Shown here: piece after piece, positions 2,912 through 28,504 of the stretch | How positions within the stretch are numbered: position 1 is the first letter of the stretch | Layout: each line of letters begins with the position of its first letter | Virus record (IMG/VR): IMGVR_UViG_3300045911_000146 | Span: 1-33,056 of that record | DNA length: 33,056 nt | Strand: one strand, 5' to 3' | Origin: a virus | Position numbers and translations under genes: made by a program | The notes under the pieces: generated by a model | Seen by the model: only the letters and a program-made list of their open reading frames with translations | Database searches by the model: none | What the model was told of the DNA's origin: nothing

Positions 2912-4547
2912 TATTTTACGCTTTCCATTGCCGCTTTCTGGGCTTAACACGGTCAACCCTTATACTGACTATGACAGCGGCTTTGCGAGGGAATTAACAA
3001 ACCTTGCCATATTTAACGGGCGATTGTTTTTGCGCCCACCGGTGAGGAGTTTTGCTTTTAACCCAGCTTTGGCGGGGGGTCCTAGAATCCGATGGTTTGA
3101 CCCGAATGGAACCCAGCAGTGTATTTTGAATAATGGAAGCTTGCTAACCTATTTAACTGGAGTAGTGACTTTAGGGGCGGGGACTTTTACCTTTTCCGCT
3201 GCTCAGCCTACTGAAGTTACTTTCTCTGGGACTGGAACAACATTAAATCTTGTTGTTGGAGTTAGCAGAGCAGCCAACCCGACAACTCCAATAACAAAAT
3301 TCGCGCCGTTCAACTCTTCTGGACCAGCAGCGAGTGCGACGCTTGGATCTCCTCGAGTAGCGTGTTCTCACAAAGGGCGATTGTATTATGCATCAGGAAC
3401 TCGGATAGAATTTGGTGCCATTGGACAAGTTTCTGGCGCTATCCCGGCTGCAAACTTTGTCGATATTGAACAATTCATGAATGGTCAGACCATTTCTCGC
3501 ATATTTTCAGTGTCGCTATCGCCTGGCCTCGCCCCCTCTCAAAACGTATTTGTAGTATTTGGCTCTGATGGTCGAGTATTAGTATTTGAAGGCGATAATC
3601 CTTCGAGCGCTACATGGAACATGATTGCAGCGTATGACATGCCTATGCCAATAGGTCGGCGCGCATATGTTGAGATTGATGGAGACATTTTCGTAGCAAC
3701 TAGCAGTTATGCTTATTGGTTTAGAGACTTATTTGCTGGCGGGGCACAAGGGGCCTATCAAAACAGCCCTTCGGTACCAGTTGAAAATCTCTGGCAACAT
3801 TTCTCGTGGACACTACCGGGGAGCGAGCCAGAGACTGGCCACATTTTCTATTACCCATTACTAGACGCTATAGTTTGTCAGTGCGCTGAAAAGCAATCAC
3901 TTTCTAAAGTGGTTAATTATCAAAATGAAGCGGTTTGCTTAGTCTACTTTAGAAAGTATCGAGCCTGGGCACTGTGGGCCGGAACGCCGTTCTTTTATCC
4001 GATTATAAATAGCCAGGGGGATTTGTACGGAACTGGTTACCAAGCAGCCATTTTCAAGATGCATAATGATATAACGCTACGTAGGGCCGATTCTTATGTT
4101 GACCTAGATGGCGTGTATTCACTGAAGGAGATCCGAGTTGAATCAAGCTGGAAAACGCCTTACGCATTTTTAGACAAGGGGATAGGGCTAACGCTGAAAT
4201 CTGCTAGGGCTTGGGTTGAAGTTCAAGAAAGTATTACCACGGCATCTATTTATAAAAGCCGAGCGATTTTTGACTATTCTGACTTAAACGCGCCCTTTGG
4301 TTTCTTTACTCAAAGCACTGTTTTGCCCATTAACCCAGGGCGATATACGGAATGCACTACTTTTATAAAAGAAATAAGTTCCGCGCAGTATAACCCGCTG
4401 TTACAATTGGGGGGGGATGGCGGCGGCGTTTCTATGCAAATATCATTTAGAGGGTACGGGTTCCCCGATCCTGGGTATTCAGAGCCTTATCAGCATTCGA
4501 TTTATGGTCTTTCAGCGTTAGTACAACCAGGGAGTGAGATATTTTAA
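2901..4547 (+). CDS. Large tail protein, nozzle or tail-tubular-B-like by size and position (548 aa).
   Basis: ATG 2901 lies about 10 nt after GAGGG. It is the second-largest ORF of the tail module (after the 815-aa 7221..9668) and is beta-rich. No named motif was recognised. Confidence 0.5.
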   Translation: MPNSILRFPLPLSGLNTVNPYTDYDSGFARELTNLAIFNGRLFLRPPVRSFAFNPALAGGPRIRWFDPNGTQQCILNNGSLLTYLTGVVTLGAGTFTFSAAQPTEVTFSGTGTTLNLVVGVSRAANPTTPITKFAPFNSSGPAASATLGSPRVACSHKGRLYYASGTRIEFGAIGQVSGAIPAANFVDIEQFMNGQTISRIFSVSLSPGLAPSQNVFVVFGSDGRVLVFEGDNPSSATWNMIAAYDMPMPIGRRAYVEIDGDIFVATSSYAYWFRDLFAGGAQGAYQNSPSVPVENLWQHFSWTLPGSEPETGHIFYYPLLDAIVCQCAEKQSLSKVVNYQNEAVCLVYFRKYRAWALWAGTPFFYPIINSQGDLYGTGYQAAIFKMHNDITLRRADSYVDLDGVYSLKEIRVESSWKTPYAFLDKGIGLTLKSARAWVEVQESITTASIYKSRAIFDYSDLNAPFGFFTQSTVLPINPGRYTECTTFIKEISSAQYNPLLQLGGDGGGVSMQISFRGYGFPDPGYSEPYQHSIYGLSALVQPGSEIF

Positions 4548-9668: not shown

Positions 9669-9937
9669 ACGATTTAAACGGCGTTTCTAACTACGATGTC
9701 TTGCAAGAAGTCCACGAAGCAAGGGTTGAGCAGGCCGCCAGCTTGGCCCGCCTCGAAAGCGCTTTGCGTGATGGGTTCGATAGTGTCGCGGGGGAGTTGC
9801 GGGCGCTGCGTGGCACTTTTGAGCAAGGATTTCTTAAGACCATCAATATTTTATGCTATTGTCTGGTAGCTATAATCATGTGGGTTACAGCTGTGAAAAC
9901 ATTACCAATGATATTAGGAGCTAGCGGAGATGGTTAA
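9665..9937 (+). CDS. Small protein with a C-terminal transmembrane helix (90 aa). Holin-like or membrane-anchor candidate.
   Basis: ATGA overlap with the upstream gene. The hydrophobic segment is INILCYCLVAIIMWVTAVKTLPMILGA. Confidence 0.55.
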   Translation: MNDLNGVSNYDVLQEVHEARVEQAASLARLESALRDGFDSVAGELRALRGTFEQGFLKTINILCYCLVAIIMWVTAVKTLPMILGASGDG

Positions 9938-10538
9938 GTGGCTTTTCTTGATTTGCTTGCTTCCTTCTATTGCGCTTGCGCAGCGCCGCAACGTTACTGT
10001 TGTTTACCTTGAACATCCAGACTCAAGCCTGCTGCAACTCAACAAGGCAGAGGCTAAGATAGCAGTACAGGGCACAAACAAACTATTTAGGCAGCTTGGG
10101 ATGCGAATTCAAATTCGCAACCTTCGCTTTGATCAAGACCCTGCGCCGCATATTACAGGGCTAAGCCCTGAAAGCCGTGTATACAAAATTTCCTATCTTA
10201 CAAGTTGGGGACAGAAATATAGAGGCCGTGCAGACGCTGTACATTATATGGTTGCGCCACTAGATGGCGGATACATGGCAGGGGTGGCTAGAGCAACTTG
10301 TTCCAATAATACACGTCTTGCGCATAGTCTTTCTAACGTAAAGACTGGGAGAGTTGATACAGCAATCGTAACGATGGCACATGAAATCGCGCACACTTTT
10401 GGCGCTGGACATTGGGATATGCAGCCGAATGTTATGCATTCAAATGCACTAAGCTATCTACCTTGGTCTGCCGGGTGGATTAATTGGGTAACTAGGGGCG
10501 ATATTAGTTTCTGTCAAAGAGTAATCAAACGAGAATAA
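9930..10538 (+). CDS. Secreted zinc metalloprotease, metzincin or reprolysin-like (202 aa).
   Basis: Sec signal peptide MVKWLFLICLLPSIALA|Q. Zinc motif HEIAHTFGAGHWD (HExxHxxGxxH-D), followed by a Met-turn candidate PNVMH. Confidence 0.75.
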   Translation: MVKWLFLICLLPSIALAQRRNVTVVYLEHPDSSLLQLNKAEAKIAVQGTNKLFRQLGMRIQIRNLRFDQDPAPHITGLSPESRVYKISYLTSWGQKYRGRADAVHYMVAPLDGGYMAGVARATCSNNTRLAHSLSNVKTGRVDTAIVTMAHEIAHTFGAGHWDMQPNVMHSNALSYLPWSAGWINWVTRGDISFCQRVIKRE

Positions 10539-12460: not shown

Positions 12461-14029
12461 TTATATATTAGGAAGTTCCAAATTATCTTCTTCCTCTTTT
12501 TCAAACCATTCTAAAATCTTAGTTACCCGGTAATACTTACCTTCTTTCTTAGTCTGGATTCGAAGCGGGCGTTTAAGCTCATATTTACGCTCCAGGGCTT
12601 CGTCGGCGGTTTCAGGGGCTGGTAGCGAGCCCCCAAGTGCAAGCCATTTCTGAACAGCCATTTGAGCCGCAAACCCACCGTGTTCAAAGCATAAGTAATC
12701 AGAGATTCTTTCGTCACCTTCCAGGAAGTAATCAACCCGAAACGATGGCGGCTTGCCTATTTTGTGATGAACAAAAAATTGCACATGTTCCAACCGGAAA
12801 GATGGCGCAACAGCGGTGGTCACTGGGGCAACATCAGCCTGTGCGGTATACTTGCTTTCGACCGGAAACGGGGCATTGCAGCCCGGGCACTCCATGATGC
12901 GAATGGGCACAACGCAACCGCATTCATCACAAGATTTTAAAGGCTGCAAAGAAAATTCAGGGGCTAATGGATTTTTATAACTCACTTCAATGCAGTCGAT
13001 AGGGCCGTGACGCTTAATGTTGCCCCCAAAATCCGCTACCAAACAGTTTTTCTTATCGGGAGCAATGCGTAATCCGCGTCCTACCATTTGCACATATAAG
13101 CCAACCGATTGAGTGGCGCGAAGGAGCACAACACAATCAATGTCAGGGAAATCAAATCCAGTAGTCAAAATATCACAGTTAGTCAAATATTTATTTGTAC
13201 CGTCTTTAAATCGATTGACTATTCTGTCACGTTCGAACGTTAGCAATCCGCCGTGTACGCACTCGCCCCCAATTTCAGTCGCGATTCGAAGCGCGTGATT
13301 TACGCCGCTACAAAATATCAATACATGTTTTCGGTCTTTAGTAATGCGCTTAATTTCCTCACAGTGCTCTTCGATTTGAAGCATTGCCTCGGCTTCTAGC
13401 TGCTCAAGGTTATAATCAAACCCGCGTAAGCTTATGTTTTTAGTGTTTATTTGTGCGGATTGCGGGACAGAAATCAAAGGAGACAGAAATTCTTGAGCAA
13501 TCAAGTGCTCGATTTTGATTTCATATGCAACTTCGCTAAACAGCGTTCCTTCTCCGATCAAGAACCCATGATCCATCCTGTATGGTGTTGCGGTCAGCCC
13601 AATAATTCTACAATTCCGCTGATTTGAGAAAAGCTTGGCGTACATTGACTCGGGCTTGCCGCTAATCAAATGCGCTTCATCAACTATAATCAAATCCCAA
13701 GTAACTAGGCTCCTGTAAATCGATTGGATATTTGCAAAAGTAACTTGTCTGATGGTCTTTTGACCTAATCCGGCAGACATTACGCCGATGGGCATTTTGG
13801 TGAGTTCTTGGAATTTCCTAGCATTTTGCTCAACTATTTCTTTCCTATGCGTAACAATTAACACTTTGAAGTGCGGGCGCTTCTCTAGTACTTGGCGCAC
13901 TATTTCTGCGGCTAAAATTGATTTTCCTGAACCAGTTGGGCACACGATTAACGGGCGTGCTTTTGGATTCGCGCGAAATGTTGCCCATAGCCCAGCGATG
14001 GCATCGGTTTGGTATTCTCTTAATTGCAT
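12461..14029 (-). CDS. Superfamily 2 DEAD/DEAH-box DNA helicase with a C-terminal zinc ribbon (522 aa).
   Basis: LREYQ (Q-motif-like), Walker A CPTGSGKS, DEAH box IIVDEAH, motif III LTATP, and VQMVGRGLR (motif VI). The Cys4 element is CDECGCVVPIRIMECPGC. Confidence 0.9.
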   Translation of the reverse strand: MQLREYQTDAIAGLWATFRANPKARPLIVCPTGSGKSILAAEIVRQVLEKRPHFKVLIVTHRKEIVEQNARKFQELTKMPIGVMSAGLGQKTIRQVTFANIQSIYRSLVTWDLIIVDEAHLISGKPESMYAKLFSNQRNCRIIGLTATPYRMDHGFLIGEGTLFSEVAYEIKIEHLIAQEFLSPLISVPQSAQINTKNISLRGFDYNLEQLEAEAMLQIEEHCEEIKRITKDRKHVLIFCSGVNHALRIATEIGGECVHGGLLTFERDRIVNRFKDGTNKYLTNCDILTTGFDFPDIDCVVLLRATQSVGLYVQMVGRGLRIAPDKKNCLVADFGGNIKRHGPIDCIEVSYKNPLAPEFSLQPLKSCDECGCVVPIRIMECPGCNAPFPVESKYTAQADVAPVTTAVAPSFRLEHVQFFVHHKIGKPPSFRVDYFLEGDERISDYLCFEHGGFAAQMAVQKWLALGGSLPAPETADEALERKYELKRPLRIQTKKEGKYYRVTKILEWFEKEEEDNLELPNI

Positions 14030-15757: not shown

Positions 15758-15976
15758 ATGAAAATAAAAACCATAGATGACTTGTTTGATCTGGCACAAG
15801 GAAGCGTGCAACTAGCGGCTAAACTAAACTTGCATCAAACCACGGTCATTCAGTGGCGTAAGATTGGAATACCAATCAAATATTGGTCGAAAATCATGGA
15901 CTTTTTGAAAGTTTCTGTTGAAGACCTTTATAGAGTGTCGGAGCGCGCACTGAATGAAGCCCGCAACGCAAAATAA
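15758..15976 (+). CDS. Cro/YdaS-like helix-turn-helix DNA-binding protein (72 aa).
   Basis: SD AGAGGGGGG precedes the ATG. The HTH segment is GSVQLAAKLNLHQTTVIQWRKIGIP. Confidence 0.7.
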   Translation: MKIKTIDDLFDLAQGSVQLAAKLNLHQTTVIQWRKIGIPIKYWSKIMDFLKVSVEDLYRVSERALNEARNAK

Positions 15977-17195
15977 GTCTAGCACCTTGCTAGCTTTGTG
16001 CCCCGGCACTACTGGCGATTTAGCTCGAGCAATCGACAGCACGTTCAGAGTTACCGATCCAATGCTATCCCTTGCTGTCGCCTTCTCTGTAGGAGGCGCG
16101 GTGCGTTCCGGTCGCATCAAGTATAAGGGATGCCATGCTAATGCGTATCACGCGATCATTGGCCCGACTGGGATTGGTAAAACAGTCGCGCAGAACTATG
16201 CTTTTACCGCGTTAATAGAAGCGGGATTAGGTGATATGCTTGCGGGGGACTTTACCAGCGAAGCCGCGCTTATTTCTAGGCTTTGTACTCATCCGATTAC
16301 TCTTGCGACATTTGATGAGCTTGGGCTTGCGCTTCAGAACATGGCCGAAGATCGCGGGGGGAATAGACGCGAAGTCTTTGCATGCATGCTTAGAGCTTTT
16401 TCAGCGACTAACGGGGTGTTGCTCGGCAAGCACTACTCTCCGCGCACCGGGGCAAGTACGCAAATGTCCGCAGCGGCTCCCCTGCTTTCTATCGTGGGCT
16501 CAAGCACTCCTAGCAGCTTTTTCGCGGGGATGACTGCAAGGGCAGCGACGGATGGTTTGCTGGGAAGATTTTTTTGCTGGTTTGCGGGCAATTTAGACCC
16601 GACTGCAAAAGAGCGTAATAGAAACGAATTCATTTTACCTGTTGGGGTTGTTGCTGAATATACAGGATTTGCAACATTAAAATCTGGCTTAACAAGGCCG
16701 GAAACGCAAGAAGCAAGATTTGCTGATGAACCAACAGTTGCTTTTATTTTGGAATCGCTTGAGCGAGATATTAGGCTTGAGCAGAATGAAGCGCGTAGGG
16801 CGTTGATTGCACGCGGGCCTGAGCTCTTTCTCAAGCTCGCTTTAGCATTGTGTGATGAGCATTTTCATATTAGCGCTGAAGCGGTTTGCTTCGCTCAAGA
16901 GCTCCTTGAGTATTTATACACCGAGGCATGGGATAAGTGTGGAGATGCGATTGGGAGGTCGAAGCAAGAAGATCAGCAGTTGCGCTTGAGAGAGAAAATT
17001 TTGCAGGTGATACCAATAGGGCGAGAGAACGCGATTACAAGAGGAGCCATAACACGCAGGACGCAATCGATAAAAAGTGCGGACAGGAAAAGTATCTTGC
17101 AAGATTTGATAGAAAGTGATGATGTAATTGAACATGAGTACTACGTCGACGAAATTTCTAGCCGCAAAGCGTCTGTCTTCTATAGACCAGGGTAA
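15954..17195 (+). CDS. DUF3987-like P-loop NTPase, putative replication initiator or helicase-loader type protein (413 aa).
   Basis: Walker A IIGPTGIGKT is preceded by the YHAIIG context typical of DUF3987. A Walker B-like motif LATFDELG is present. It lies next to an iteron-rich region. Confidence 0.65.
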   Translation: MKPATQNKSSTLLALCPGTTGDLARAIDSTFRVTDPMLSLAVAFSVGGAVRSGRIKYKGCHANAYHAIIGPTGIGKTVAQNYAFTALIEAGLGDMLAGDFTSEAALISRLCTHPITLATFDELGLALQNMAEDRGGNRREVFACMLRAFSATNGVLLGKHYSPRTGASTQMSAAAPLLSIVGSSTPSSFFAGMTARAATDGLLGRFFCWFAGNLDPTAKERNRNEFILPVGVVAEYTGFATLKSGLTRPETQEARFADEPTVAFILESLERDIRLEQNEARRALIARGPELFLKLALALCDEHFHISAEAVCFAQELLEYLYTEAWDKCGDAIGRSKQEDQQLRLREKILQVIPIGRENAITRGAITRRTQSIKSADRKSILQDLIESDDVIEHEYYVDEISSRKASVFYRPG

Positions 17196-17208
17196 CGCCC
17201 TGATAAAA

Positions 17209-17520
<312 letters not shown>

Positions 17521-17526
17521 TCATAA

Positions 17527-17557
17527 GCTAGGTAGTCGCGTAGCGCGACTACCTAGC
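17527..17557. terminator. GC-rich 14-bp perfect hairpin between convergent transcription units.
   Basis: GCTAGGTAGTCGCG-TAG-CGCGACTACCTAGC. It lies directly downstream of the stop of the - strand gene 17565..17726. Confidence 0.6.
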
Positions 17558-17564
17558 AGCCCCG

Positions 17565-18091: not shown

Positions 18092-18307
18092 CACATGACT
18101 AACTCTTATAAACTCGTAATCGCGGACTTTGTCCGCGACACTTACGAACACTGGCCCTCCCTCACACTCGAGGGAGCAATAGCTTACGATAAAATAAGCG
18201 CGGCTATTTTAGAATTGCCACCGCTTAGATCAATCGCACCAGATATTTTTGATGCGACAATACAAACACTTTTGTATACGGAGACCGTCTATGCCGTCGA
18301 AAGGTAA
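18092..18307 (+). CDS. Hypothetical protein (71 aa).
   Basis: ORF 18041..18307. The internal ATG 18092 (MTNSYKLV...) is preferred if the candidate promoter is real. The start is uncertain. Confidence 0.5.
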   Translation, partial: HMTNSYKLVIADFVRDTYEHWPSLTLEGAIAYDKISAAILELPPLRSIAPDIFDATIQTLLYTETVYAVER

Positions 18308-18680
18308 AGACTGCTGTAAAATCTGCGAGCGCCCAATCGGACGCGAAGACACTTGCAATTATTTAACTTGCGTAGTTTGCGAAGAATCAGTCTGTGAACG
18401 TTGCTGCCTCGATTTCAGCGAAGCAATCCTTGAAATCGACGGCGCTGAAGTTTGCGCAGACTGTCAGTGTAAACCACGCATCGATGACATCCGGCCATAC
18501 CTCCGCAGCGGAGAGCATTTTGTCGTTTCACGCGATAAGCGCGATAAATGTTGGTTCGGCGTGCGCCGATGCGTCGAAAGCGACGGCATGATCCGCGGGT
18601 GGTTACTCGCGCACAATGGGCGCGTGTGGGCGTGCGAATCACCGCTCGAAGTAGAAGCAGCAATAATGAGCATGTTTTAA
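18291..18680 (+). CDS. Cys-rich zinc-finger protein (129 aa).
   Basis: ATG 18291 lies 6 nt after GGAGA. Paired Cys motifs are CCKICERP...CNYLTCVVCEESVCERCC...CADCQC. Confidence 0.65.
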   Translation: MPSKGKDCCKICERPIGREDTCNYLTCVVCEESVCERCCLDFSEAILEIDGAEVCADCQCKPRIDDIRPYLRSGEHFVVSRDKRDKCWFGVRRCVESDGMIRGWLLAHNGRVWACESPLEVEAAIMSMF

Positions 18681-18694
18681 CGGTCGACGAGCAC

Positions 18695-18979
18695 CGAGTT
18701 CAAAAATGAAGGCCCTTATTCTGCGAACAGCATATGATCACTTGCGCTTGCGATCAGGCTCGTGGTCGGGGTCGTGGTCGCGGTCGGGAGTGTGGTCGCG
18801 GTCGGGGTCGCGGTCGGGGGCGTGGTCGCGGTCGTGGTCGTGGTCGCGGTCGTGGTCGCGGTCGGGGTCGTGGTCGCGGTCGGGAGTGTGGTCGCGGTCG
18901 TGGGCGGGGTCGTGGTCGCGGTCAGGGGCGTGCTCGCGGTCAGGCAACAAAACTCGATGAAAACGGTCGACGAGCACCG
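18695..18979 (+). repeat. Hexamer-array element A: a conserved 5' flank, 33 copies of GGTCGN (array 18746-18943), and a conserved 3' flank.
   Basis: The 5' flank CGAGTTCAAAAATGAAGGCCCTTATTCTGCGAACAGCATATGA and the 3' flank GCGGTCAGGCAACAAAACTCGATGAAAAC are shared with element B. The array is open in all six frames. Candidate ORFs are 18706..18960, 18734..18982 and 18762..18989. Confidence 0.9.
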
Positions 18980-19011
18980 TAAAATGTAAGAAAAAAACAA
19001 AGGATGAACAT

Positions 19012-19353
19012 ATGAGTGAATGTATAGACAACTTAAAACTAAAAGAGATTAAAGAATTGCTTTCTATTGTCGGAGGATCAGCAGCAAAGACAGAGTTGCC
19101 CTTTAAAATCGGGGAAAAGGTTTTTATCCGAACCGTTACTCATTATCTCACCGGGCAAATTAAAGACATAGTTGGAAAGTTTTTAGTACTCAAAGACGCC
19201 GCATGGATAGCAGACAGTGGAAGGTTCACGCAGGCAATCGAGGAGGGGAGATTAAATGAGGTAGAGCCGGTAACCTCAGACGTGCGTGTGAATACAGATT
19301 CAATTGTAGATTGTTATCAGTGGGCTTTTGAATTGCCGCGAGTTCAAAAATGA
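19012..19353 (+). CDS. Hypothetical protein (113 aa).
   Basis: ATG is preceded by AAAGGA. The composition looks like an ordinary globular protein. Its last 15 nt form the 5' end of element B. Confidence 0.7.
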   Translation: MSECIDNLKLKEIKELLSIVGGSAAKTELPFKIGEKVFIRTVTHYLTGQIKDIVGKFLVLKDAAWIADSGRFTQAIEEGRLNEVEPVTSDVRVNTDSIVDCYQWAFELPRVQK

Positions 19354-19638
19354 AGGCCCTTATTCTGCGAACAGCATATGACCACTTGTGCTCGCGGTCA
19401 GGCTCGCAATCGGGGGCGTGGTCGCGGTCGCAGTTGTGGTCGTGGTCGGGGTCGTGGTCGCGGTCGGGGGCGTGGTCGGGGTCAGGGGCGTGGTCGCGGT
19501 CGCAGTCGTGGTCGTGGTCGGCGTCGTGGTCGCGGTCGCGGTCGTGGTCGGGGGCGTGGTCGCGGTCGCGGTCGTGGTCGCGGTCAGGCTCGCAGTCGCG
19601 GTCAGGCAACAAAACTCGATGAAAACAGTCGAGCATCG
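19339..19638 (+). repeat. Hexamer-array element B: a paralogue of element A with 36 copies of GGTCGN (array 19390-19605).
   Basis: It has the same flanks as element A. Candidate ORFs are 19350..19622 (ATGA-coupled to the upstream gene), 19378..19647 and 19388..19669. Confidence 0.9.
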
Positions 19639-19678: not shown

Positions 19679-20302
19679 ATGAAAACATTTACAATCGACC
19701 ACATCCGCTCATGGAACCCTTGCTACAATCTAATCAAACACCTGCCCGAAAGGTGGTCTGGTACGGTAATAGACATACTCAAGCACAGCACCATCCCGCC
19801 CGAAGATAAAATCTCGGTCATATGTCGAAATGAATTAATCAACGCAAAAACCTTGCGATCGTTTGCGGTCGAATGCGCTCGGCAGGTGCAGCATCTAATG
19901 AAAGACAAACGAAGTGTTGCTGCGCTAGACGTATCTGAAAGATACACAAACGGGCAAGCGACTGATAACGAGCTTGTTGCTGCTTGTGAGGCTGCTCATG
20001 CCGCTGCTTGTAACGCTACCGGGGCTGCCGCTTGGGAGGCCGCCTGGGCTGCTGCTTGGGCCACCGCCTTGGCTGCCGCTCAGGAAGCCGCTCAGGAAGC
20101 CGCTCAGGCTGCCGCTTGGGCTGCCGCTCGGGAAGCCGTTCAGGCGGCTAAGGCCGCCGCCCAGGCTGCCAATTGGCCTGCTAGGGGTGTTAGGGAGGCG
20201 TCTAAAGTTGCTGGGGCTATTGCTATGGCTCTTGTTAGGGAGGCCCAGATCGCAAAATTAATTCAGATGGTGGAAGAGGGAGATGAAAGCCTACTGAATT
20301 AA
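19679..20302 (+). CDS. Ala/Trp-repeat protein (207 aa) with a globular N-domain and an AAWxAA-type helical repeat region.
   Basis: Contains GAAAWEAAWAAAWATALAAAQEAAQEAAQAAAWAAAREAVQAAKAAAQAA. It resembles widespread uncharacterised bacterial and phage proteins with (A-A-x-x) periodic Ala repeats. Confidence 0.65.
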   Translation: MKTFTIDHIRSWNPCYNLIKHLPERWSGTVIDILKHSTIPPEDKISVICRNELINAKTLRSFAVECARQVQHLMKDKRSVAALDVSERYTNGQATDNELVAACEAAHAAACNATGAAAWEAAWAAAWATALAAAQEAAQEAAQAAAWAAAREAVQAAKAAAQAANWPARGVREASKVAGAIAMALVREAQIAKLIQMVEEGDESLLN

Positions 20303-21654: not shown

Positions 21655-21879
21655 ATGAATAAGCCAGGGCTGCTTAAGCAGTGGAGGGAGCAGTGTAGAA
21701 TAAGCCAGAGCGAAGCTGCAAAATTGCTCGGCGTTTCTCCACAACGCTATTCATATATGGAACATCACGGGAAAGTGATCCCTCATTCTGCACTTCGCCT
21801 CATGGCTAATGCATGGGCTGAAAGCACAGAACAATCAGTAGTAAAGTTTTATGGGTGGTATCATAATAGTGGGCGATAG
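21655..21879 (+). CDS. XRE-type helix-turn-helix protein (74 aa).
   Basis: The HTH segment is ISQSEAAKLLGVSPQRYSYMEH. Confidence 0.65.
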   Translation: MNKPGLLKQWREQCRISQSEAAKLLGVSPQRYSYMEHHGKVIPHSALRLMANAWAESTEQSVVKFYGWYHNSGR

Positions 21880-22159
21880 CGGCACTATAAAGACTTATTT
21901 GCTCTTCTCATACCCACAAAATGTGCGTAAACACAGCGAAAAGCAGGTTTCGCTTAAACAAGGCGAAGCCGTTCTAGACATTTTTCTCGGCTCTGGCTCA
22001 ACACTAATCGCAGCCGACCAGCTTGGGCGCATTTGCTACGGTATGGGGATAAGCCCCGTATATTGTCAGGCAATACTAGAACGATATCAGAGCTACTGCG
22101 CCGATAGTGACAAGAAATGCATCATTAAAATAAACGGCGAGCCATTCTATGCCAACTAA
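21851..22159 (+). pseudogene. Internally deleted remnant of a beta-class N6/N4 DNA methyltransferase (102 aa ORF).
   Basis: An N-terminal IIIVGDS motif and a C-terminal AdoMet motif I block, VLDIFLGSGSTLIAADQLGRICYGMGISPVYCQAILERY, are present. The roughly 150 aa that normally carry the DPPY catalytic motif are absent. Confidence 0.55.
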
Positions 22160-22502
22160 AGGGACTTCACGATTTAAAGCTACAGATGAGCAGCGTAAGC
22201 TCGTTGAGCAAATGGCCGCATTTGGCGTATCACAAGAGCAAATTGCCGGTGTGTTAGGCGTTTCAGTGGATACTATTCAGCGGCACTTTAGAAAAGAAAT
22301 TGATACGGCAGCAACGCGCGCGAATACAAGAGTTGCAGGCGCTTTATACAAAAACGCCATGGAAGGTAACGTGTCTGCGCAAATATTCTGGATGAAGACT
22401 CGGGGGAAATGGAGAGAAGTGCATGACGTTGAAGTCAGCGGAAAAGACGGAAGCGGAATCATCCCTTCAATTACCATCGGGGTTAATAAATCTTCAGTTT
22501 AA
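22149..22502 (+). CDS. terS: Terminase small subunit (117 aa).
   Basis: HTH segment VSQEQIAGVLGVSVDTIQRHF, followed by AQIFWMKTRGKWRE, a typical small-terminase motif. It lies immediately upstream of the large subunit. Confidence 0.8.
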   Translation: MPTKGTSRFKATDEQRKLVEQMAAFGVSQEQIAGVLGVSVDTIQRHFRKEIDTAATRANTRVAGALYKNAMEGNVSAQIFWMKTRGKWREVHDVEVSGKDGSGIIPSITIGVNKSSV

Positions 22503-23967
22503 CCTACATCCACAGCAAGCCAATTTACTAAACACCACAGCGACCGAAATACTATTCGGCGGCGCAGCAGGAGGCGGCAAAAGCTTTTTGACGCGCGTTT
22601 TGTCAATCCTTTGGTGCGTTGAAATCCCCGGGCTAAACGTATTCTTGTTTCGTCGATTATATGACGACTTAATCAAGAATCATGTGGAAGGCCCGACAGG
22701 TTACCGCGCAATGCTGGCCCCTTGGCTTAATGCCAAGCATCCACAGTCTCCGCTACTCGCCGGGCGCGTGTGCGAAATGTTGCAGACCGAGATTCGATTC
22801 TGGAACGGTAGCAAGATTTTCCTTTGTCATTTGCAGCATCAAAAAGATATTACTAAATACTATGGTCCTGAATTCCATGTGCTGTTCATTGAAGAAGCGA
22901 CGCAGTTCACTGAGTTCATGATCCGCTTTTTGCGCGGTCGCTTGCGTATCCCTGACGCTTTAAAAATACCAGATAAATACAAGAAGCCTGAAGCTGAATG
23001 GCGCGACCCTAAAGTGCCTGATTACTATTTCCCCCGAGCTATCTATACGAGCAACCCCGGGGGAGTAGGGCATGCGTATTTAAAGCGCTCGTTTATTACC
23101 GGGTTCAAGCCGCTGCAATTACACAAGGCGCCCGATGACGACGGTGGGCACACTAGGATGTACGTACCAGCCAAAGTAGACGACAACCCAAGCGTGAACC
23201 GTGAGCAGGTCAAAGAGCAATTGCGCGGGCTACCACCCGCACTGGTAAATGCGCTTTTATTGGGAGATTGGAACGCTGTTGTAGGCGCGTTCTTCCCGGA
23301 GCCTGGTCCGCAGCACGTTGTCCCTAATTTTCAGATCCCTGATTACTGGCCCAGGTTTATGAGTATGGACTGGGGCGCGTGCGGAGAGGGAGACCCTTTT
23401 GCCATTGGCTGGTGGACTGTAAGCGACGGCACATATTTACCGAGGGGGAGTTTAATTTGCTATCGTCGATGGTATGGGCGCGGACTGCCTAAAGTTACTG
23501 CGCACATGGTGGCGCTCGGCATAAAAGAAAGAGAGCAAGGCGAGAAGATTGTAGCTAGACACGCCGGTGGTGACATCCTAGAAAAACGAGGGACCGGCCC
23601 AAGCTTATTTGAGATCTTTGCAGGCGAGGGTATTCACTTTCAGCGCGCCGATATGCGCCGCATAAATGGCTGGGCACAGGTCAGAGAGAGATTAGTAGGC
23701 AAAAATGGCAAGCCATTGCTCTATTGGACAGAAGAAACTTCAGAAAGTTTAGAATTGCTAGGGAATTTACAACATGACATAAATAACCCTAGCGATATTG
23801 CGCCTGGCGACGATCATGAAGCGGACATGATTCGTTACATGTGCATGTCAAGACCATTCACCCGCAATATGCCAGCAGCTAAATTGCCTCAAGCGGAAAG
23901 ATTTAAAATGCCCACAATGGATGAAGCATGGAGTCAGAGAGAGCAGAGGAACAACCCAAGGCGCTAG
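22423..23967 (+). CDS. terL: Terminase large subunit (514 aa).
   Basis: Walker A FGGAAGGGKSF and Walker B VLFIEEA. The C-terminal nuclease region contains MSMDWG and DDHEADM. ATG follows GGAGAGAAG. It overlaps terS by 80 nt, with no alternative start in frame. Confidence 0.9.
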   Translation: MTLKSAEKTEAESSLQLPSGLINLQFNLHPQQANLLNTTATEILFGGAAGGGKSFLTRVLSILWCVEIPGLNVFLFRRLYDDLIKNHVEGPTGYRAMLAPWLNAKHPQSPLLAGRVCEMLQTEIRFWNGSKIFLCHLQHQKDITKYYGPEFHVLFIEEATQFTEFMIRFLRGRLRIPDALKIPDKYKKPEAEWRDPKVPDYYFPRAIYTSNPGGVGHAYLKRSFITGFKPLQLHKAPDDDGGHTRMYVPAKVDDNPSVNREQVKEQLRGLPPALVNALLLGDWNAVVGAFFPEPGPQHVVPNFQIPDYWPRFMSMDWGACGEGDPFAIGWWTVSDGTYLPRGSLICYRRWYGRGLPKVTAHMVALGIKEREQGEKIVARHAGGDILEKRGTGPSLFEIFAGEGIHFQRADMRRINGWAQVRERLVGKNGKPLLYWTEETSESLELLGNLQHDINNPSDIAPGDDHEADMIRYMCMSRPFTRNMPAAKLPQAERFKMPTMDEAWSQREQRNNPRR

Positions 23968-26165
23968 ACACTAAAGCATTAGCGCTTAAGTGGTTAAAAG
24001 AAATTGATAGAGTTCAGCGCTCTAAAGAGCAAAAAGCATTTGAGAATATCGGCGAGCGCATTGTCAAAAAGTACCGCAACGCTGACGCGCTACAAGTTTA
24101 CAGCTCCAACGTAGGCAATAGCACGCGCGTTATGCTTAATGCGCTTTGGACCGTCGTTGAAATCATGAAGCCTGTGCTTTATGCGCGAATGCCTCAAATC
24201 GTAGTAGAAAGAGAATTTAAAGACAAAGACGACGTTGCGCGAGTAGCTGCAATGGGCGCAGAGCGTTGTGTAGGGTATATGCTGCGCAGTCAGCAGAATC
24301 AGTTTAATTATGCAGTTAAAGGAGCAGTATTAGACAGACTGCTGTCAGGGCGCGGGCAAGTGTGGCCACGGTTTGAGTACAAAGAGGAAGAGCCCTACAG
24401 CGAGAAAGTCTGTATCAGCCCGCTCAATTGGCTTGATTACTTAGAGTCCCCGGCGCGCAATCAATATGAAATTAGATGGCGCGCGAAACGCGCGCACATG
24501 AGCAGGCAAGCCTTAATCAATCGCTTTGGCGAAAAGATTGGAAACGCTGTTAAGTTTGAGACTGAGGATAAGCGCGGCAAAGATGCTGATGACATAGAGC
24601 ATCAAGCGGAAGTTTGGGAGATTTGGGACAAAGACACTAAGCGCGTGTATTGGGTATCAAAAGGCTACAAGGACGATTTGCTAGATTGGAAGGATGACCC
24701 GCTGCGCTTAAAAGAATTCTTCCCGTGCCCTATTCCGTTGCTTGCTACCACTGTTACTGACACCACCTATCCAACTCCAGACTTTAAGATATATGAAAAG
24801 CTCGCTGACGAAGTTGATTATATTACTAAGCGCATTGCTTCCATTGTAGATTGCATACGAGTTGTCGGCGTTACTGCCGCAAGCCTGAACGCAGACCTAA
24901 AGAACATGCTTAAGCTTAACGATGGCGACCTGTGGCCCATTGAGCAATGGGTTACATTCTCAGAACGCGGCGGATTAAGAGGCGCAGTCGATTGGTTCCC
25001 GTTTGAACAAGCAGCTAACGTATTGCCAACGTTGATTCAGTATCAACAACATTGCATAAGCTTAATTTTTGAACAGATTGTTGGATTGCCTGACATTGTT
25101 AGGGGGTTTAGCGATCCAAACGAAACTGCCGCAGCGCAACAAAAGAAATCACACTGGACTGTTGTCCGAGTCGCCGAAAAGCAGCAAGACGTTCAGCGAT
25201 TTTGCCGCGATATTGTAGGCATTACCGCTGAGATAATGTTTGAGCCTGGCCTGTTTAGTGATGAAACACTGTCGCTGATGGCGGGGGCCGAACAATTTAG
25301 CCCAGAAGATCAAGCGCTTTGGCCTGAAGCTTTAGCGATGTTGCGTAATGATAGATTGCGCACATTCCGCGTAGATATTGAGACTGATTCAACTATTGCG
25401 GCGGATCAAGAATTAGATAAGCAATCACGCACCGAATTCATAGGCGCAATCACGCAGTTATTCGGGCAAGTGCAGTCTGTTGTTCAGTTCTCTCCTGAAC
25501 TAATGAAACCAATGCTTGAGTCCGCGTTATTTGCCGCTAGAGCATTCAAAGCAGGGCGCGCATTAGAGGGGGCATTCGAGCAGGCGATTGACAGGATAGT
25601 AGAACAGCAAAAGCAACCGCCTCCGCCCCCGCCTCCAGACTATGAAATGCAGAAGCTTCAGCTTGAATCGCAGGGGTTGCAGCTAAAGGCGCAAGAGGCG
25701 CAAGGCAAAGCGCAGCTTGAAATGCAAAAGTTGCAGCTTGAAGCAGAAGATAAGCGCGCAAAAATTGATATTGAAATGCAAAAGATGCAGCTCGAAATGC
25801 GGCGCATCATGTCCGACGAGCAGCGCGATAGTTTTGATGCGCGATTAGAAGAGTTTAAAGAACAATTCAACCAGTGGGCTGAATCGCAGCGTCTACAATT
25901 GCAGCAAATGACAGAATCGCAGCGCTTGGAGCTTGAAAAGGCGGCGACTATACTGCAAGAGCGGGAAAAGCTAATTGAAGAAGCGCGGCTAAAACAAGAG
26001 CAAATGTTGCGCAGTGCCGAGCTACTTGCCGCGAAACAACCAGCGCAACAAGCGGCGCCGAATATTACTATTGTCAATGACGATGGCGAGAAGGAAGTAT
26101 TATTATCCAGAGATGCAATGGGCGGACTAGTTGGTAGAACTAGGCGGGTAAAGCGTGACGTATAA
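23928..26165 (+). CDS. Portal protein with an extended C-terminal coiled coil (745 aa).
   Basis: Assigned by size and by position directly after terL. The last roughly 186 aa start with P7 and are heptad-like (EMQKLQLE repeated 3 times). The start codon is uncertain by a few codons. Confidence 0.8.
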   Translation: MESERAEEQPKALDTKALALKWLKEIDRVQRSKEQKAFENIGERIVKKYRNADALQVYSSNVGNSTRVMLNALWTVVEIMKPVLYARMPQIVVEREFKDKDDVARVAAMGAERCVGYMLRSQQNQFNYAVKGAVLDRLLSGRGQVWPRFEYKEEEPYSEKVCISPLNWLDYLESPARNQYEIRWRAKRAHMSRQALINRFGEKIGNAVKFETEDKRGKDADDIEHQAEVWEIWDKDTKRVYWVSKGYKDDLLDWKDDPLRLKEFFPCPIPLLATTVTDTTYPTPDFKIYEKLADEVDYITKRIASIVDCIRVVGVTAASLNADLKNMLKLNDGDLWPIEQWVTFSERGGLRGAVDWFPFEQAANVLPTLIQYQQHCISLIFEQIVGLPDIVRGFSDPNETAAAQQKKSHWTVVRVAEKQQDVQRFCRDIVGITAEIMFEPGLFSDETLSLMAGAEQFSPEDQALWPEALAMLRNDRLRTFRVDIETDSTIAADQELDKQSRTEFIGAITQLFGQVQSVVQFSPELMKPMLESALFAARAFKAGRALEGAFEQAIDRIVEQQKQPPPPPPPDYEMQKLQLESQGLQLKAQEAQGKAQLEMQKLQLEAEDKRAKIDIEMQKMQLEMRRIMSDEQRDSFDARLEEFKEQFNQWAESQRLQLQQMTESQRLELEKAATILQEREKLIEEARLKQEQMLRSAELLAAKQPAQQAAPNITIVNDDGEKEVLLSRDAMGGLVGRTRRVKRDV

Positions 26166-26874: not shown

Positions 26875-27311
26875 TGACGTACTCGTTTTCTCCGCAGCAG
26901 CGGGTTTATCGCACTACGATAACATTTGATCATTTCTTCAGTGGTGCGGGGAGCACCACGATATACACTTCTATCCCTAAATTCTCATCAGAAGCAGAAG
27001 CTTATATTACAAGCAGTAGCGTGCCGTCGGGGTCGTTTGGTGGAGGGCCGCTATATTTTGGGGCAGTAGTGCAGGCGCGACAAGCAAGCTCTGGCTCAGA
27101 GAAGGTTGCTGCAAACCTAAGCTCTTATTCCGGAATTGGTACAAGCATGCGTTCTACCGTTGGATGTACTGATAGGTATTTTGGTAGTGGTATTTATTTG
27201 GCTGATTTTTACATAGACAACCCGAATAGTCGGGTCGCTTGGGTATGGACTAAAGCGGTATCAGGGACAGGGTCGCTAGATGCTTATGCCCATTTGCTGG
27301 TGAAACCGTGA
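26874..27311 (+). CDS. Hypothetical beta-rich protein (145 aa).
   Basis: GTG start within TAGTGACGTA, the same GTGACGTA start context as the previous gene. Confidence 0.55.
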   Translation: MTYSFSPQQRVYRTTITFDHFFSGAGSTTIYTSIPKFSSEAEAYITSSSVPSGSFGGGPLYFGAVVQARQASSGSEKVAANLSSYSGIGTSMRSTVGCTDRYFGSGIYLADFYIDNPNSRVAWVWTKAVSGTGSLDAYAHLLVKP

Positions 27312-28504
27312 CAAAAGCATTGATTCTTTGCACTGAAACCGACCGAATTTGGGGTGGTCGCGGCGAACACGTGCAGCAAGTTGCTAAGCGGTTGCATGCT
27401 AATGGTGTTACTCCTTATCTCATTACTATTGATAATAAATGGTTAGAGACACCTCCTTGCTACACTCGTTCTATCCACGAGATTCCTAACGCATTTATCC
27501 CGCGTACAAACGAAGAATCTAGGCTATCTAATCAAATGGCCTGGATTGAGCTAGGGGCTAAAGTCATTAGAGAGCAGGGATGTAACGTAATTCAAGCGCA
27601 CGATTGGGATGCGGTTACCCCGGCGCTGGCCTTGAGGGGGATTTTTAATATTCCTGTAGTAATATCGTTTCATCTGTTTCAGTACCAGCTAGTTATGGAG
27701 ATGGGGCAGGAAGAAACAGAGGACACTAGAGTCTCTATGATGGAAGAAGTCAGGGGGCATTCTGAGGCAAATCTAGTTACTTATTGTTCTGTTTCTATGC
27801 AGCAATTCGCGCTGAGGCAATTATTACCGGCGCAAGATTCTCTAGTGCTTTATAATGGCGTGGATGTTCAGGAATGGATTACTCCGATGAGCCGCAGCTT
27901 AAACAGTCGAAAAATTGTTTTGTATTGTGGGCGGCTATGTTCACAAAAGGGATATGACATTTTTCTTGATTTAGTAGAGCAAGACATAGCTGGTCGTTTT
28001 GAGTGGCAGGTAATGGGGCAAGTCCCCGCATTGGAACAGGAAGATGCTGAGAAAACGGTGCCAATGCGGCGAGTACGAAAGTTAGAGTCCGAAGGCAAGC
28101 TAAAATATTTGGGGCATCTTTATGGGGAAGAAAAGCGCAAGAAAATTCGACAGGCTGATGCTATTGTTGTTCCCTCCCGGAAGGAGCCGTTCGGCATTAT
28201 CGCACTAGAGGCGTTTGCTGCGGGGGTACCTCTATTTACTACTCGAGTGGATGGTCTAGCTGAGTTTTGTACTGATGATAATAGCTATACGATGGGGGAG
28301 CTGGTGCCATTTCTTGAGAGTGGGGGGATACATTTTAAGCAAGACGCAGCGCTTCAAACGGCTAGGTTATTTAATTGGGATAAGTGTGCGGCTAGTACAG
28401 CAAGATTTTTAAAAGAGGTGTGTAATGTTAAGATTAGCTCAGCCAAAAGTAGCAGCGAATGTAGATGTAAGCCACTTGTTTATCACGATGGATCCGGTGC
28501 TTAA
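27308..28504 (+). CDS. Family 1-fold (GT4-like) glycosyltransferase (398 aa).
   Basis: N-terminal ALILCTE...WGGRGEHV. The C-terminal Ex7E-type motif is SRKEPFGIIALEAFAAGVPLFTTRVDGLAEF. GTGA overlap with the upstream gene. Confidence 0.8.
   Translation: MTKALILCTETDRIWGGRGEHVQQVAKRLHANGVTPYLITIDNKWLETPPCYTRSIHEIPNAFIPRTNEESRLSNQMAWIELGAKVIREQGCNVIQAHDWDAVTPALALRGIFNIPVVISFHLFQYQLVMEMGQEETEDTRVSMMEEVRGHSEANLVTYCSVSMQQFALRQLLPAQDSLVLYNGVDVQEWITPMSRSLNSRKIVLYCGRLCSQKGYDIFLDLVEQDIAGRFEWQVMGQVPALEQEDAEKTVPMRRVRKLESEGKLKYLGHLYGEEKRKKIRQADAIVVPSRKEPFGIIALEAFAAGVPLFTTRVDGLAEFCTDDNSYTMGELVPFLESGGIHFKQDAALQTARLFNWDKCAASTARFLKEVCNVKISSAKSSSECRCKPLVYHDGSGA

Follow-up and report, generated by a model that had tools for sequence, protein, structure and literature searches.

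The viral contig IMGVR_UViG_3300045911_000146 of IMG/VR is a phage sequence of 33,056 nt (hereinafter referred to as the window; all coordinates refer to its full length) and carries two tandem arrays based on the hexamer GGTCGN, designated A and B. Comparative analysis showed that both elements are predicted small protein-coding genes read in the frame TCG-NGG, which specifies Ser-[Arg/Trp/Gly] dipeptides (hereafter Ser-X or S-X). As judged by sequence comparison, the S-X genes represent a large, previously undescribed phage family occurring in hundreds of uncultured phages and paired with a small Sm-like protein. The S-X gene was shown to be the downstream, translationally coupled mate of this protein of 85-115 aa with a predicted Sm/LSm-like fold. 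The arrays were also shown to evolve as hexamer blocks are gained and lost, whereby one serine codon per array is kept and length polymorphism results. Taken together, the claims that the arrays are coding Ser-X genes, that they belong to a conserved coupled cassette, and that they change by gain and loss of blocks are held with high confidence. Coordinates of the features are given in Table 1.

Array structure and the translated frame

Both arrays were present at the positions given by the original prediction. Tandem Repeats Finder (TRF) delimited them at 18760-18941 and 19392-19603 (scores 178-246), and the core GGTCGNGGTCG was counted 30 times, always on the plus strand and within 18764-18918 and 19420-19580, against 0.06 copies expected from 100 shuffles. 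The 41-bp perfect repeat in A (18764-18804 and 18860-18900) was exact, and the sixth base of exact units was C, T, or G and never A. The earlier description of GGTCG as almost invariant was too strong, because exact GGTCGN units filled only 22 of the 33 slots in A and 20 of the 36 slots in B. Five of the six reading frames were open, rather than all six as had been proposed, one minus-strand frame containing 3-4 stops. Alignment recovered the 49-nt 5' flank common to A and B with one mismatch, together with a common 3' flank. The 5' flank is indeed conserved, but it is not a non-coding flank: it includes a copy of the 3' end of the upstream gene as well as a start codon and 13 codons for a leader peptide, and in B it begins 15 nt before the end of the gene encoding the Sm-like protein (the partner gene).

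The previous exclusion of a clustered regularly interspaced short palindromic repeat (CRISPR) array, a diversity-generating retroelement (DGR), an iteron origin, and a plain microsatellite was judged right. CRISPR arrays have repeats of about 23-47 bp with unique spacers of comparable length between them, whereas the period here is 6 nt and spacers are absent. Neither array has an A at the variable position, and therefore neither can template the other as in a DGR; no reverse transcriptase was found among the open reading frames (ORFs) scanned in the window, a scan that did not cover every small ORF.

A scan of IMG/VR with the pattern (GGTCGN)5GGTCG returned at least 120 matches, so the feature is widespread. 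Recurrence in other phage DNA, which the original prediction had put forward as a check, thus held for the array pattern and failed for the exact 3'-flank pattern, which had no match in IMG/VR; the array flanks are lineage-specific.

Frame statistics were calculated for 139 arrays from the IMG/VR pattern loci and the window. An ATG between the preceding stop and the array was present in 95 of 115 cases (83%) in the Ser-X frame, compared with 28 of 118 (24%) in the Gly-Arg frame and 18 of 115 (16%) in the Val-Ala frame, and the Gly-Arg frame was without a start codon in more than half of the 139 arrays. Ser-X ORFs in unrelated contigs shared the N-terminal leader M-N-x-A-[ILV]-[LM]-R-x-G-[FY]-[DE], as in MNAALLRAGLD, MNQAILRAGFD, and MNQAFLRTGFD (MKALILRTAYD in the window); (Ser-[Arg/Trp/Gly])n and then an early stop came next. 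In most Ser-X ORFs the stop was located 0-2 codons past the array, usually in the form Ser-[I/Y/V/L/F]-stop. The pattern of codon use shows that conservation of the leader lies in its amino-acid sequence, the codons varying synonymously: Arg7 was encoded by AGG, AGA, CGT, CGA, CGG, and CGC, Gly9 by all four glycine codons, and codon entropy was 1.55 at the third position as opposed to 1.08 and 0.77 at the first and second positions.

The serine codon of the repeat itself differed among relatives. At the loci of the closest relatives, whose partner protein was 77% and 73% identical to that of the window, the partner gene was followed by an ATGA-overlapping ORF (MNGTILRLGFEN and MNGAIARVGYEN), each continuing as (S[RGW])n encoded by AGC-NGG hexamers; the locus of a third relative had TCG-NGG units. 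Since AGC units would turn the Gly-Arg frame into Gly-Ala, the Ser-X peptide alone is conserved. In a wider survey that began from the partner protein, and was therefore unbiased as to the nucleotides of the repeat, the serine codons of 94 distinct arrays were TCG (788), AGC (400), TCT (191), TCA (148), AGT (99), and TCC (20). A single serine codon was more than 90% pure in 84 of the 94 arrays, and all six serine codons were used across the set.

The first hypothesis, suggested by the wobble pattern GGT-CGN, had been that the arrays encode poly-GR microproteins in which the sixth base is the wobble position of arginine. The codon counts of the original prediction, which imply this frame, were reproduced in it (CGT 10, CGC 10, CGG 7), changes at the variable positions (N6 and some T3 to G) are silent in that frame, and the window has ATGs in it at 18734 and 19378. 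These ATGs are, however, by-products of the Tyr-Asp codons of the leader (TAT GAT), a start codon in this frame was found in less than a quarter of the arrays, and units based on AGC, TCT, TCA, or AGT would read Gly-Ala, Leu-Gly, and so on, so that Gly-Arg is not conserved. The Gly-Arg translation was rejected on the basis of the start-codon statistics and the serine-codon switching in relatives; it is contradicted by the comparative data and we regard it as very improbable.

Among the roles listed by the original prediction, dipeptide-repeat microproteins proved the correct option, whereas the repeat-RNA and DNA-binding-array options were unsupported. No Rfam 15 family matched over the arrays at E <= 1, and the folding z-scores of the two arrays (-1.6 and +1.6) were not significant; a structured repeat RNA was rejected on these two grounds. 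More generally, a purely non-coding repeat (RNA sponge, quadruplex, or protein-binding array in DNA) or an assembly artefact would fit with the failure of the gene callers behind the protein collection to call an ORF here and with the occurrence of repeats at many contig ends. Against this, hundreds of independent assemblies, drawn from several sources, keep the leader and the serine as peptide, and conservation between relatives does not extend to the nucleotide unit. The comparative data contradict the non-coding and artefact readings, which we consider the least probable of all.

The coupled gene pair and its Sm-like member

The predicted product of an S-X gene, as exemplified by genes A and B, consists of a conserved leader of 11-13 residues, about 30-35 Ser-X dipeptides with X being Arg, Trp, or Gly, and a short tail. 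Overall identity between proteins A and B is 76%, and their leaders (MKALILRTAYDHL) and tails (RSGNKTR) are the same. Gene A lies upstream of the partner gene and is bracketed by the two copies of a 17-bp direct repeat, as a duplication junction would be. Because it carries a copied end of the partner gene and is bracketed in this way, gene A was identified as a duplicate of a B-type gene with the last 15 nt of the partner gene carried along. We propose to recognize the family by an ATG-initiated Ser-NGG ORF, the leader M-[NK]-x-A-h-h-R-x-[GA]-[FY]-[DE], adjacency to the partner (LPxxQK*), and a stop soon past the array. The start, leader, and stop were found in both A and B; B adjoins the partner with an ATGA overlap, and A sits upstream of the partner with the duplicated partner 3' end.

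The partner was modelled by AlphaFold2 (AF2) with a predicted local distance difference test score (pLDDT) of 88, and the model agreed with the Sm fold, which is defined by an N-terminal helix and a strongly bent five-stranded β sheet. Its top PDB matches in Foldseek were Sm/LSm chains (E values of 2.5e-4 to 3e-3, target-normalised template modelling (TM) score of approximately 0.7), the archaeal SmAP1 (1i8f) being an example of the best matches (TM 0.72, root-mean-square deviation 2.0 Å). Spliceosomal Sm subunits also appeared among the matches, as did the LSm domains of LSm14 and Edc3 (6f9w, 6am0), which are binders of short helical peptides. Matches in BFVD were uncharacterised phage proteins, DUF6948 proteins, and one protein annotated as 'RNA binding protein'. 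In sequence searches, the partner had no match in Pfam, PHROG, or PADLOC and none among PDB sequences at E <= 10, and its 174 close relatives in the protein database were all hypothetical. A profile of the partner searched against 1.84 billion cluster representatives retrieved 2,020 members at E <= 1e-3 and, under the stricter threshold of E <= 1e-10, 1,485, the family size of about 2,000 being counted as clusters at 50% identity.

The partner was encoded on 295 viral contigs. At 83 of the 102 loci found through the partner, an S-X array started no more than 200 nt downstream, and 94 loci had at least one array; arrays were sometimes located upstream of the partner, and up to six were present per locus. 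The S-X start abutted or overlapped the upstream stop in 77 of 96 cases, 70 of which were ATGA, and a Shine-Dalgarno core preceded 39% of S-X starts as against 10% in the control. Among the 87 testable loci found by nucleotide pattern, a first partner subfamily was adjacent in 52 and a second in at least 11 more. The C-terminus of the partner family, LPxxQK*, is part of what had been described as the 5' flank. The Sm-like protein was the only conserved neighbour: no conserved third gene was found within +/-3 kb at 83 loci, and the cassettes lay in variable neighbourhoods among accessory genes. In the original prediction, A and B were paralogous elements located after ordinary genes and without assignable function. 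This description missed the context, namely a conserved pair of translationally coupled genes in which the Sm-like protein is encoded first and the array second.

Members of the second partner subfamily (approximately 88 aa, ..LFCLNYIYTGKLVGVN..IVYETG..AIESFGLGK*) are distant kin of the 113-aa family (hmmsearch E values of 2e-7 to 5e-5) and were found at loci L066, L082, L087, L052, L002, L006, L013, L026, L048, L049, L083, and L095. They precede S-X ORFs with another leader, M-x-R-S-x-K-Q-K-Y-R-S, and the leader type therefore tracks the partner subfamily. Further, three to six S-X genes were arranged head to tail in some phages (L009, L091, L049, L127, L166), each with its own leader and with frequent stop/start overlaps. 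The Sm-like family also contained tandem two-domain members of 211-258 aa (P0121, P0122, P0127), and in two entries (P0116, P0219) gene callers had fused the Sm-like protein to array sequence.

The layout of the S-X genes, in which a short, conserved leader precedes a hypervariable core, is also that of a precursor of ribosomally synthesized and post-translationally modified peptides (RiPPs), in which enzymes modify a repetitive core. No modifying enzyme or RiPP recognition element (RRE) protein was found adjacent to the S-X genes: there is no conserved third gene at the 83 loci, and the sole conserved neighbour is a small β-barrel without an enzyme signature. In addition, known RiPPs have cores that are much shorter and less repetitive, and we consider a RiPP precursor highly unlikely.

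Composition, array turnover, and candidate functions

The S-X proteins had a median length of 70 aa (range 26-155 aa), and neither a signal peptide nor a transmembrane segment was found in them. The array core consisted of 48% Ser, 18% Arg, 16% Gly, and 14% Trp, with a near-random order of X. The X codons were GGG (495), TGG (485), AGG (416), and CGG (200), that is, approximately 97% NGG, with other synonyms making up about 3%. Two contigs that were 99.7-99.9% identical over 6 kb (L200 at 3258-3563 and L204 at 3258-3443) differed within the S-X array by a clean 120-nt indel of 20 hexamers, which reflects either a real length polymorphism or an assembly collapse.

Matches to the pattern AGCNGG (L228-L347) included many homogeneous (AGCAGG)n or (AGCTGG)n repeats, that is, (SR)n or (SW)n, from which the leader and a nearby ATG were absent. 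These homogeneous repeats are a class apart from the mixed S-[R/W/G] genes, and the pattern is not a specific probe for the family because its matches were mostly homogeneous, leaderless simple repeats.

The favoured explanation is a coupled pair in which an Sm-like protein and a cationic/aromatic repeat protein act on RNA or another polyanion, and we put its chances at about even. The mechanistic part is proposed more tentatively. The Sm-like protein and the S-X protein would work together, and the short N-terminal leader, helical by a low-confidence prediction, may dock onto the Sm-like protein. The repeat, in which Ser alternates with Arg, Trp, or Gly and which is predicted to be strongly cationic and aromatic, would then bind RNA or another polyanion, or drive its condensation, in the infected cell. 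The analogy is with the RS, RGG, and GR low-complexity tails that accompany Sm/LSm domains in eukaryotic ribonucleoproteins.

Several known systems resemble the cassette in part. Sm/LSm proteins with Arg-rich tails (SmD1/SmD3 with GR, LSm4 with RGG, LSm14/Edc3) likewise combine a β-barrel of the type found by Foldseek with an Arg-rich repeat polypeptide, and the S-X leader could dock as short helical motifs do on the LSm domains of LSm14 and Edc3. They differ in that here the repeat is a separate, coupled phage gene for Ser-[R/W/G] rather than GR or RGG, and in that the partner is without a sequence-level Sm motif or Pfam LSM match, its RNA binding being assumed.

Serine-rich repeat glycoproteins of Gram-positive bacteria, such as Fap1 and GspB, have long Ser-X runs encoded by a nearly uniform hexanucleotide unit. 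Fap1 and GspB are very large, secreted, LPXTG-anchored adhesins in which X is Ala, Val, Glu, or Thr, and their glycosylation depends on GtfA/B and their export on SecA2/Y2. The likeness is confined to the Ser-X dipeptide runs from a near-uniform hexamer, since the S-X ORFs encode 26-155 aa with a non-signal leader and have no conserved neighbouring gene for an accessory Sec system or GtfA/B, and neither a signal peptide nor LPXTG was found. The C9orf72 repeat proteins (poly-GR, poly-PR) are also arginine dipeptide polymers arising from a hexanucleotide repeat in which several frames are open, but the S-X genes have an ATG start, a single frame, a conserved leader, and one heterogeneous position, as in an evolved gene and not a pathological expansion.

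The RS domains of eukaryotic SR proteins share with the S-X repeat alternating Ser and Arg and a cationic low complexity that engages RNA and aromatics (PMC10023157); RS repeats, aromatic stacking, and phase separation have been linked (PMC10023157). In contrast to SR proteins, the S-X proteins have no RNA recognition motif, about one third of X is Trp and one third Gly, the proteins are free-standing, and an SRPK-type kinase context is absent. In phages, the T4 proteins GoF, MotB.1, and Frd.2, which are small early proteins, have been predicted to adopt an LSm-like fold and are suspected of a role involving RNA, and GoF and its relatives are the only other phage LSm-like proteins described (PMC12152347). 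These proteins are small and LSm-like as is the partner, but there is no sequence kinship and no associated repeat-peptide gene.

A number of observations weigh against the favoured explanation. The Sm likeness exists at the fold level only: neither the partner nor 51 family members matched Pfam LSM, and the canonical Sm1/Sm2 motifs were not seen. For this reason, a hexameric or heptameric ring and RNA binding by the modelled partner are assumptions. The AF2 model of the S-X protein had low confidence (pLDDT 61, two-sequence alignment) and predicted β strands instead of disorder; in this model, an N-terminal helix is followed by long β strands that would set all Ser on one face and Arg, Trp, and Gly on the opposite face. 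The restriction of X to NGG is unexplained by selection on the protein alone, and the codons of the arrays are infrequent in the ordinary genes of the window, in which TCG accounts for 13% of Ser codons and CGG for 9% of Arg codons; no tRNA genes were found. Gene A has no upstream gene to which it could be coupled, and its Shine-Dalgarno sequence is weak. Finally, no isolate phage is known to carry the cassette: a DNA search of INPHARED found no related isolate, and a protein search found one uncultured record.

The codon bias bears on a further possibility, a dual-level module in which the S-X ORF is translated and the periodic NGG mRNA, with GG every 6 nt, is also a ligand, for example of an upstream-encoded Sm-like ring, serving autoregulation or RNA sequestration in the manner of TRAP or Hfq on short repeated RNA motifs. 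The restriction to NGG may indeed come from such a constraint at the RNA level, with GG-periodic RNA as partner ligand: Arg and Gly are encoded by various codons in the leader of these ORFs, the array codons are rare in the other genes of the phage, and the partner has a predicted Sm-like fold. On the other hand, the retention of Ser across TCN and AGY codons indicates a constraint at the protein level, and an RNA structure signal was absent. Moreover, the restriction may have its origin in mutational accessibility, since Trp has only TGG, Arg, Trp, and Gly interconvert via first-position changes, and arrays reseeded from one unit would regain all three by such changes only if the unit is NGG. 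A dual-level module appears unlikely.

Alternatively, the S-X peptide may be toxic or membrane-active, serving in host takeover, as a lysis aid, or in exclusion, with the Sm-like protein as its chaperone or antitoxin in an operon resembling type II toxin-antitoxin systems. Arg/Trp-rich peptides are classic membrane-active antimicrobials, two small genes with an overlapping stop and start would suit such an operon, and the cassette lies among accessory genes in variable neighbourhoods. However, the S-X proteins have neither a signal peptide nor a transmembrane segment, a single partner gene can be accompanied by as many as six S-X genes, and the cassette does not adjoin lysis genes in the window. 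In addition, neither the S-X proteins nor the partner matched known toxin, antitoxin, defence, or anti-defence profiles in PADLOC, Pfam, or PHROGs. We rate a toxic role as improbable.

The pair of Sm-like protein and cationic/aromatic repeat protein could also be seen more broadly, as a widespread, previously unrecognised device built on a cationic/aromatic polymer, combinatorial and hyper-evolvable, with which phages would capture RNA of the host or blunt one of its immune sensors. In such a device, Ser-NGG would keep the variable positions one mutation from Arg, Trp, or Gly, and hexamer slippage would alter the length. The GG-periodic mRNA itself would possibly be the ligand of the partner, which would make a dual-coded RNA/protein module. 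This extended version is a speculative one, with a low probability in our estimate.

Genomic surroundings, database coverage, and significance

Several other features of the window were recorded near the cassette or elsewhere (Table 1). A 143-aa Cys-rich ORF with several CxxC pairs and weak, sub-threshold zinc-finger-like Pfam matches lies upstream of element A (18249-18680). Directly past element B, a gene at 19679-20302 encodes a 207-aa protein with Ala/Trp/Gln-rich repeats of a 12-nt period (AAAWEAAWAAAW.., AAQEAAQEAAQ); its DNA repeats span 20022-20145, its sole match was phrog_18326 of unknown function, and it is a second low-complexity protein adjoining the cassette. Just past the primase gene (17200-17560), a motif of about 24 nt (ATTAAACATTCAC-N5-TTCAAGG) occurs four times, twice in direct and twice in inverted orientation, making up an imperfect inverted repeat of 116 nt, which is followed by (ATT)16 at 17471-17520 and a hairpin with a perfect 14-bp stem at 17527-17557. 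This region resembles an origin composed of iterons and an AT-rich stretch, or else a regulatory region.

A glycosyltransferase of the GT4 family, which also matched the 'GT4-conflict' Pfam family, is encoded at 27308-28504. The idea that it glycosylates the Ser-rich proteins was rejected: it had no relatives in IMG/VR, and the 1.5 Mb surrounding 227 cassette loci contained no homolog of it, so that it is not linked to the cassette. Further genes included a reprolysin-like metallopeptidase of 202 aa (9930-10538), an SU10-type adaptor protein (1164-1907), and a short ORF corresponding to no more than the C-terminal end of an N6/N4 DNA methylase (21851-22159).

Table 1. Positions of the hexamer arrays, the predicted cassette genes, the duplication features, and other genes in the window.
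Feature	Position	Strand	Remarks
Hexamer array, gene A	18746-18943	+	Coding register TCG-NGG
Hexamer array, gene B	19390-19605	+	
Predicted S-X microprotein gene A	18706-18960	+	84 aa; MKALILRTAYDHL + (Ser-[Arg/Trp/Gly])n + SGNKTR*; frame by start-codon statistics, leader, and serine-codon switching
Predicted S-X microprotein gene B	19350-19622	+	90 aa; leader and tail as in A; ATG overlaps partner TGA (ATGA)
Partner gene	19012-19353	+	113 aa; predicted Sm/LSm-like small β-barrel; C-terminus LPRVQK*
Duplicated 3' end of Sm-like gene	18695-18709	+	CGAGTTCAAAAATGA; reads ..RVQK* plus overlapping ATG; identical to 19339-19353
17-bp direct repeat, copy 1	18680-18696	+	ACGGTCGACGAGCACCG; directly 5' of element A; identical to copy 2
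17-bp direct repeat, copy 2	18963-18979	+	Read from sequence
Helicase	12461-14029	-	
Primase	15954-17195		
Large terminase	22423-23967		
Portal	23928-26165		

Outside the viral collections, the only genome matches were 23 in GTDB, nearly all of them in metagenome-assembled genomes (MAGs) assigned to a wide range of phyla and in most cases on contigs no longer than about 35 kb. These matches are probably mis-binned phage and thus give no information on the host. A protein-database search with S-X protein B returned nothing at E <= 1e-3, probably as a result of composition filters and uncalled ORFs, and an exact look-up of four candidate ORFs found none in a collection of 15 billion proteins; the genes are therefore uncalled, at least here. 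Full-text literature searches with peptide strings and on phage dipeptide or hexanucleotide repeats yielded nothing relevant. Since no Pfam, PHROGs, PADLOC, or Rfam family matched and the literature was likewise empty, the cassette was rated as a new kind of phage gene pair, with a function assigned by inference.

If these conclusions are true, thousands of environmental phage genomes carry genes for dipeptide-repeat microproteins, which were uncalled in the window and are absent from Pfam and PHROGs. The codon architecture of the family is unusual and very regular, with one serine codon per array and X almost always encoded by NGG. Array length changes fast, and the genes are tightly linked to a large Sm-like family. 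The cassette would thus offer an entry point to the role of low-complexity proteins in phages, including RNA capture, condensates, toxicity, and immune evasion, as well as to the diversification of tandem coding repeats and to the small-ORF content missed in viral metagenomes.

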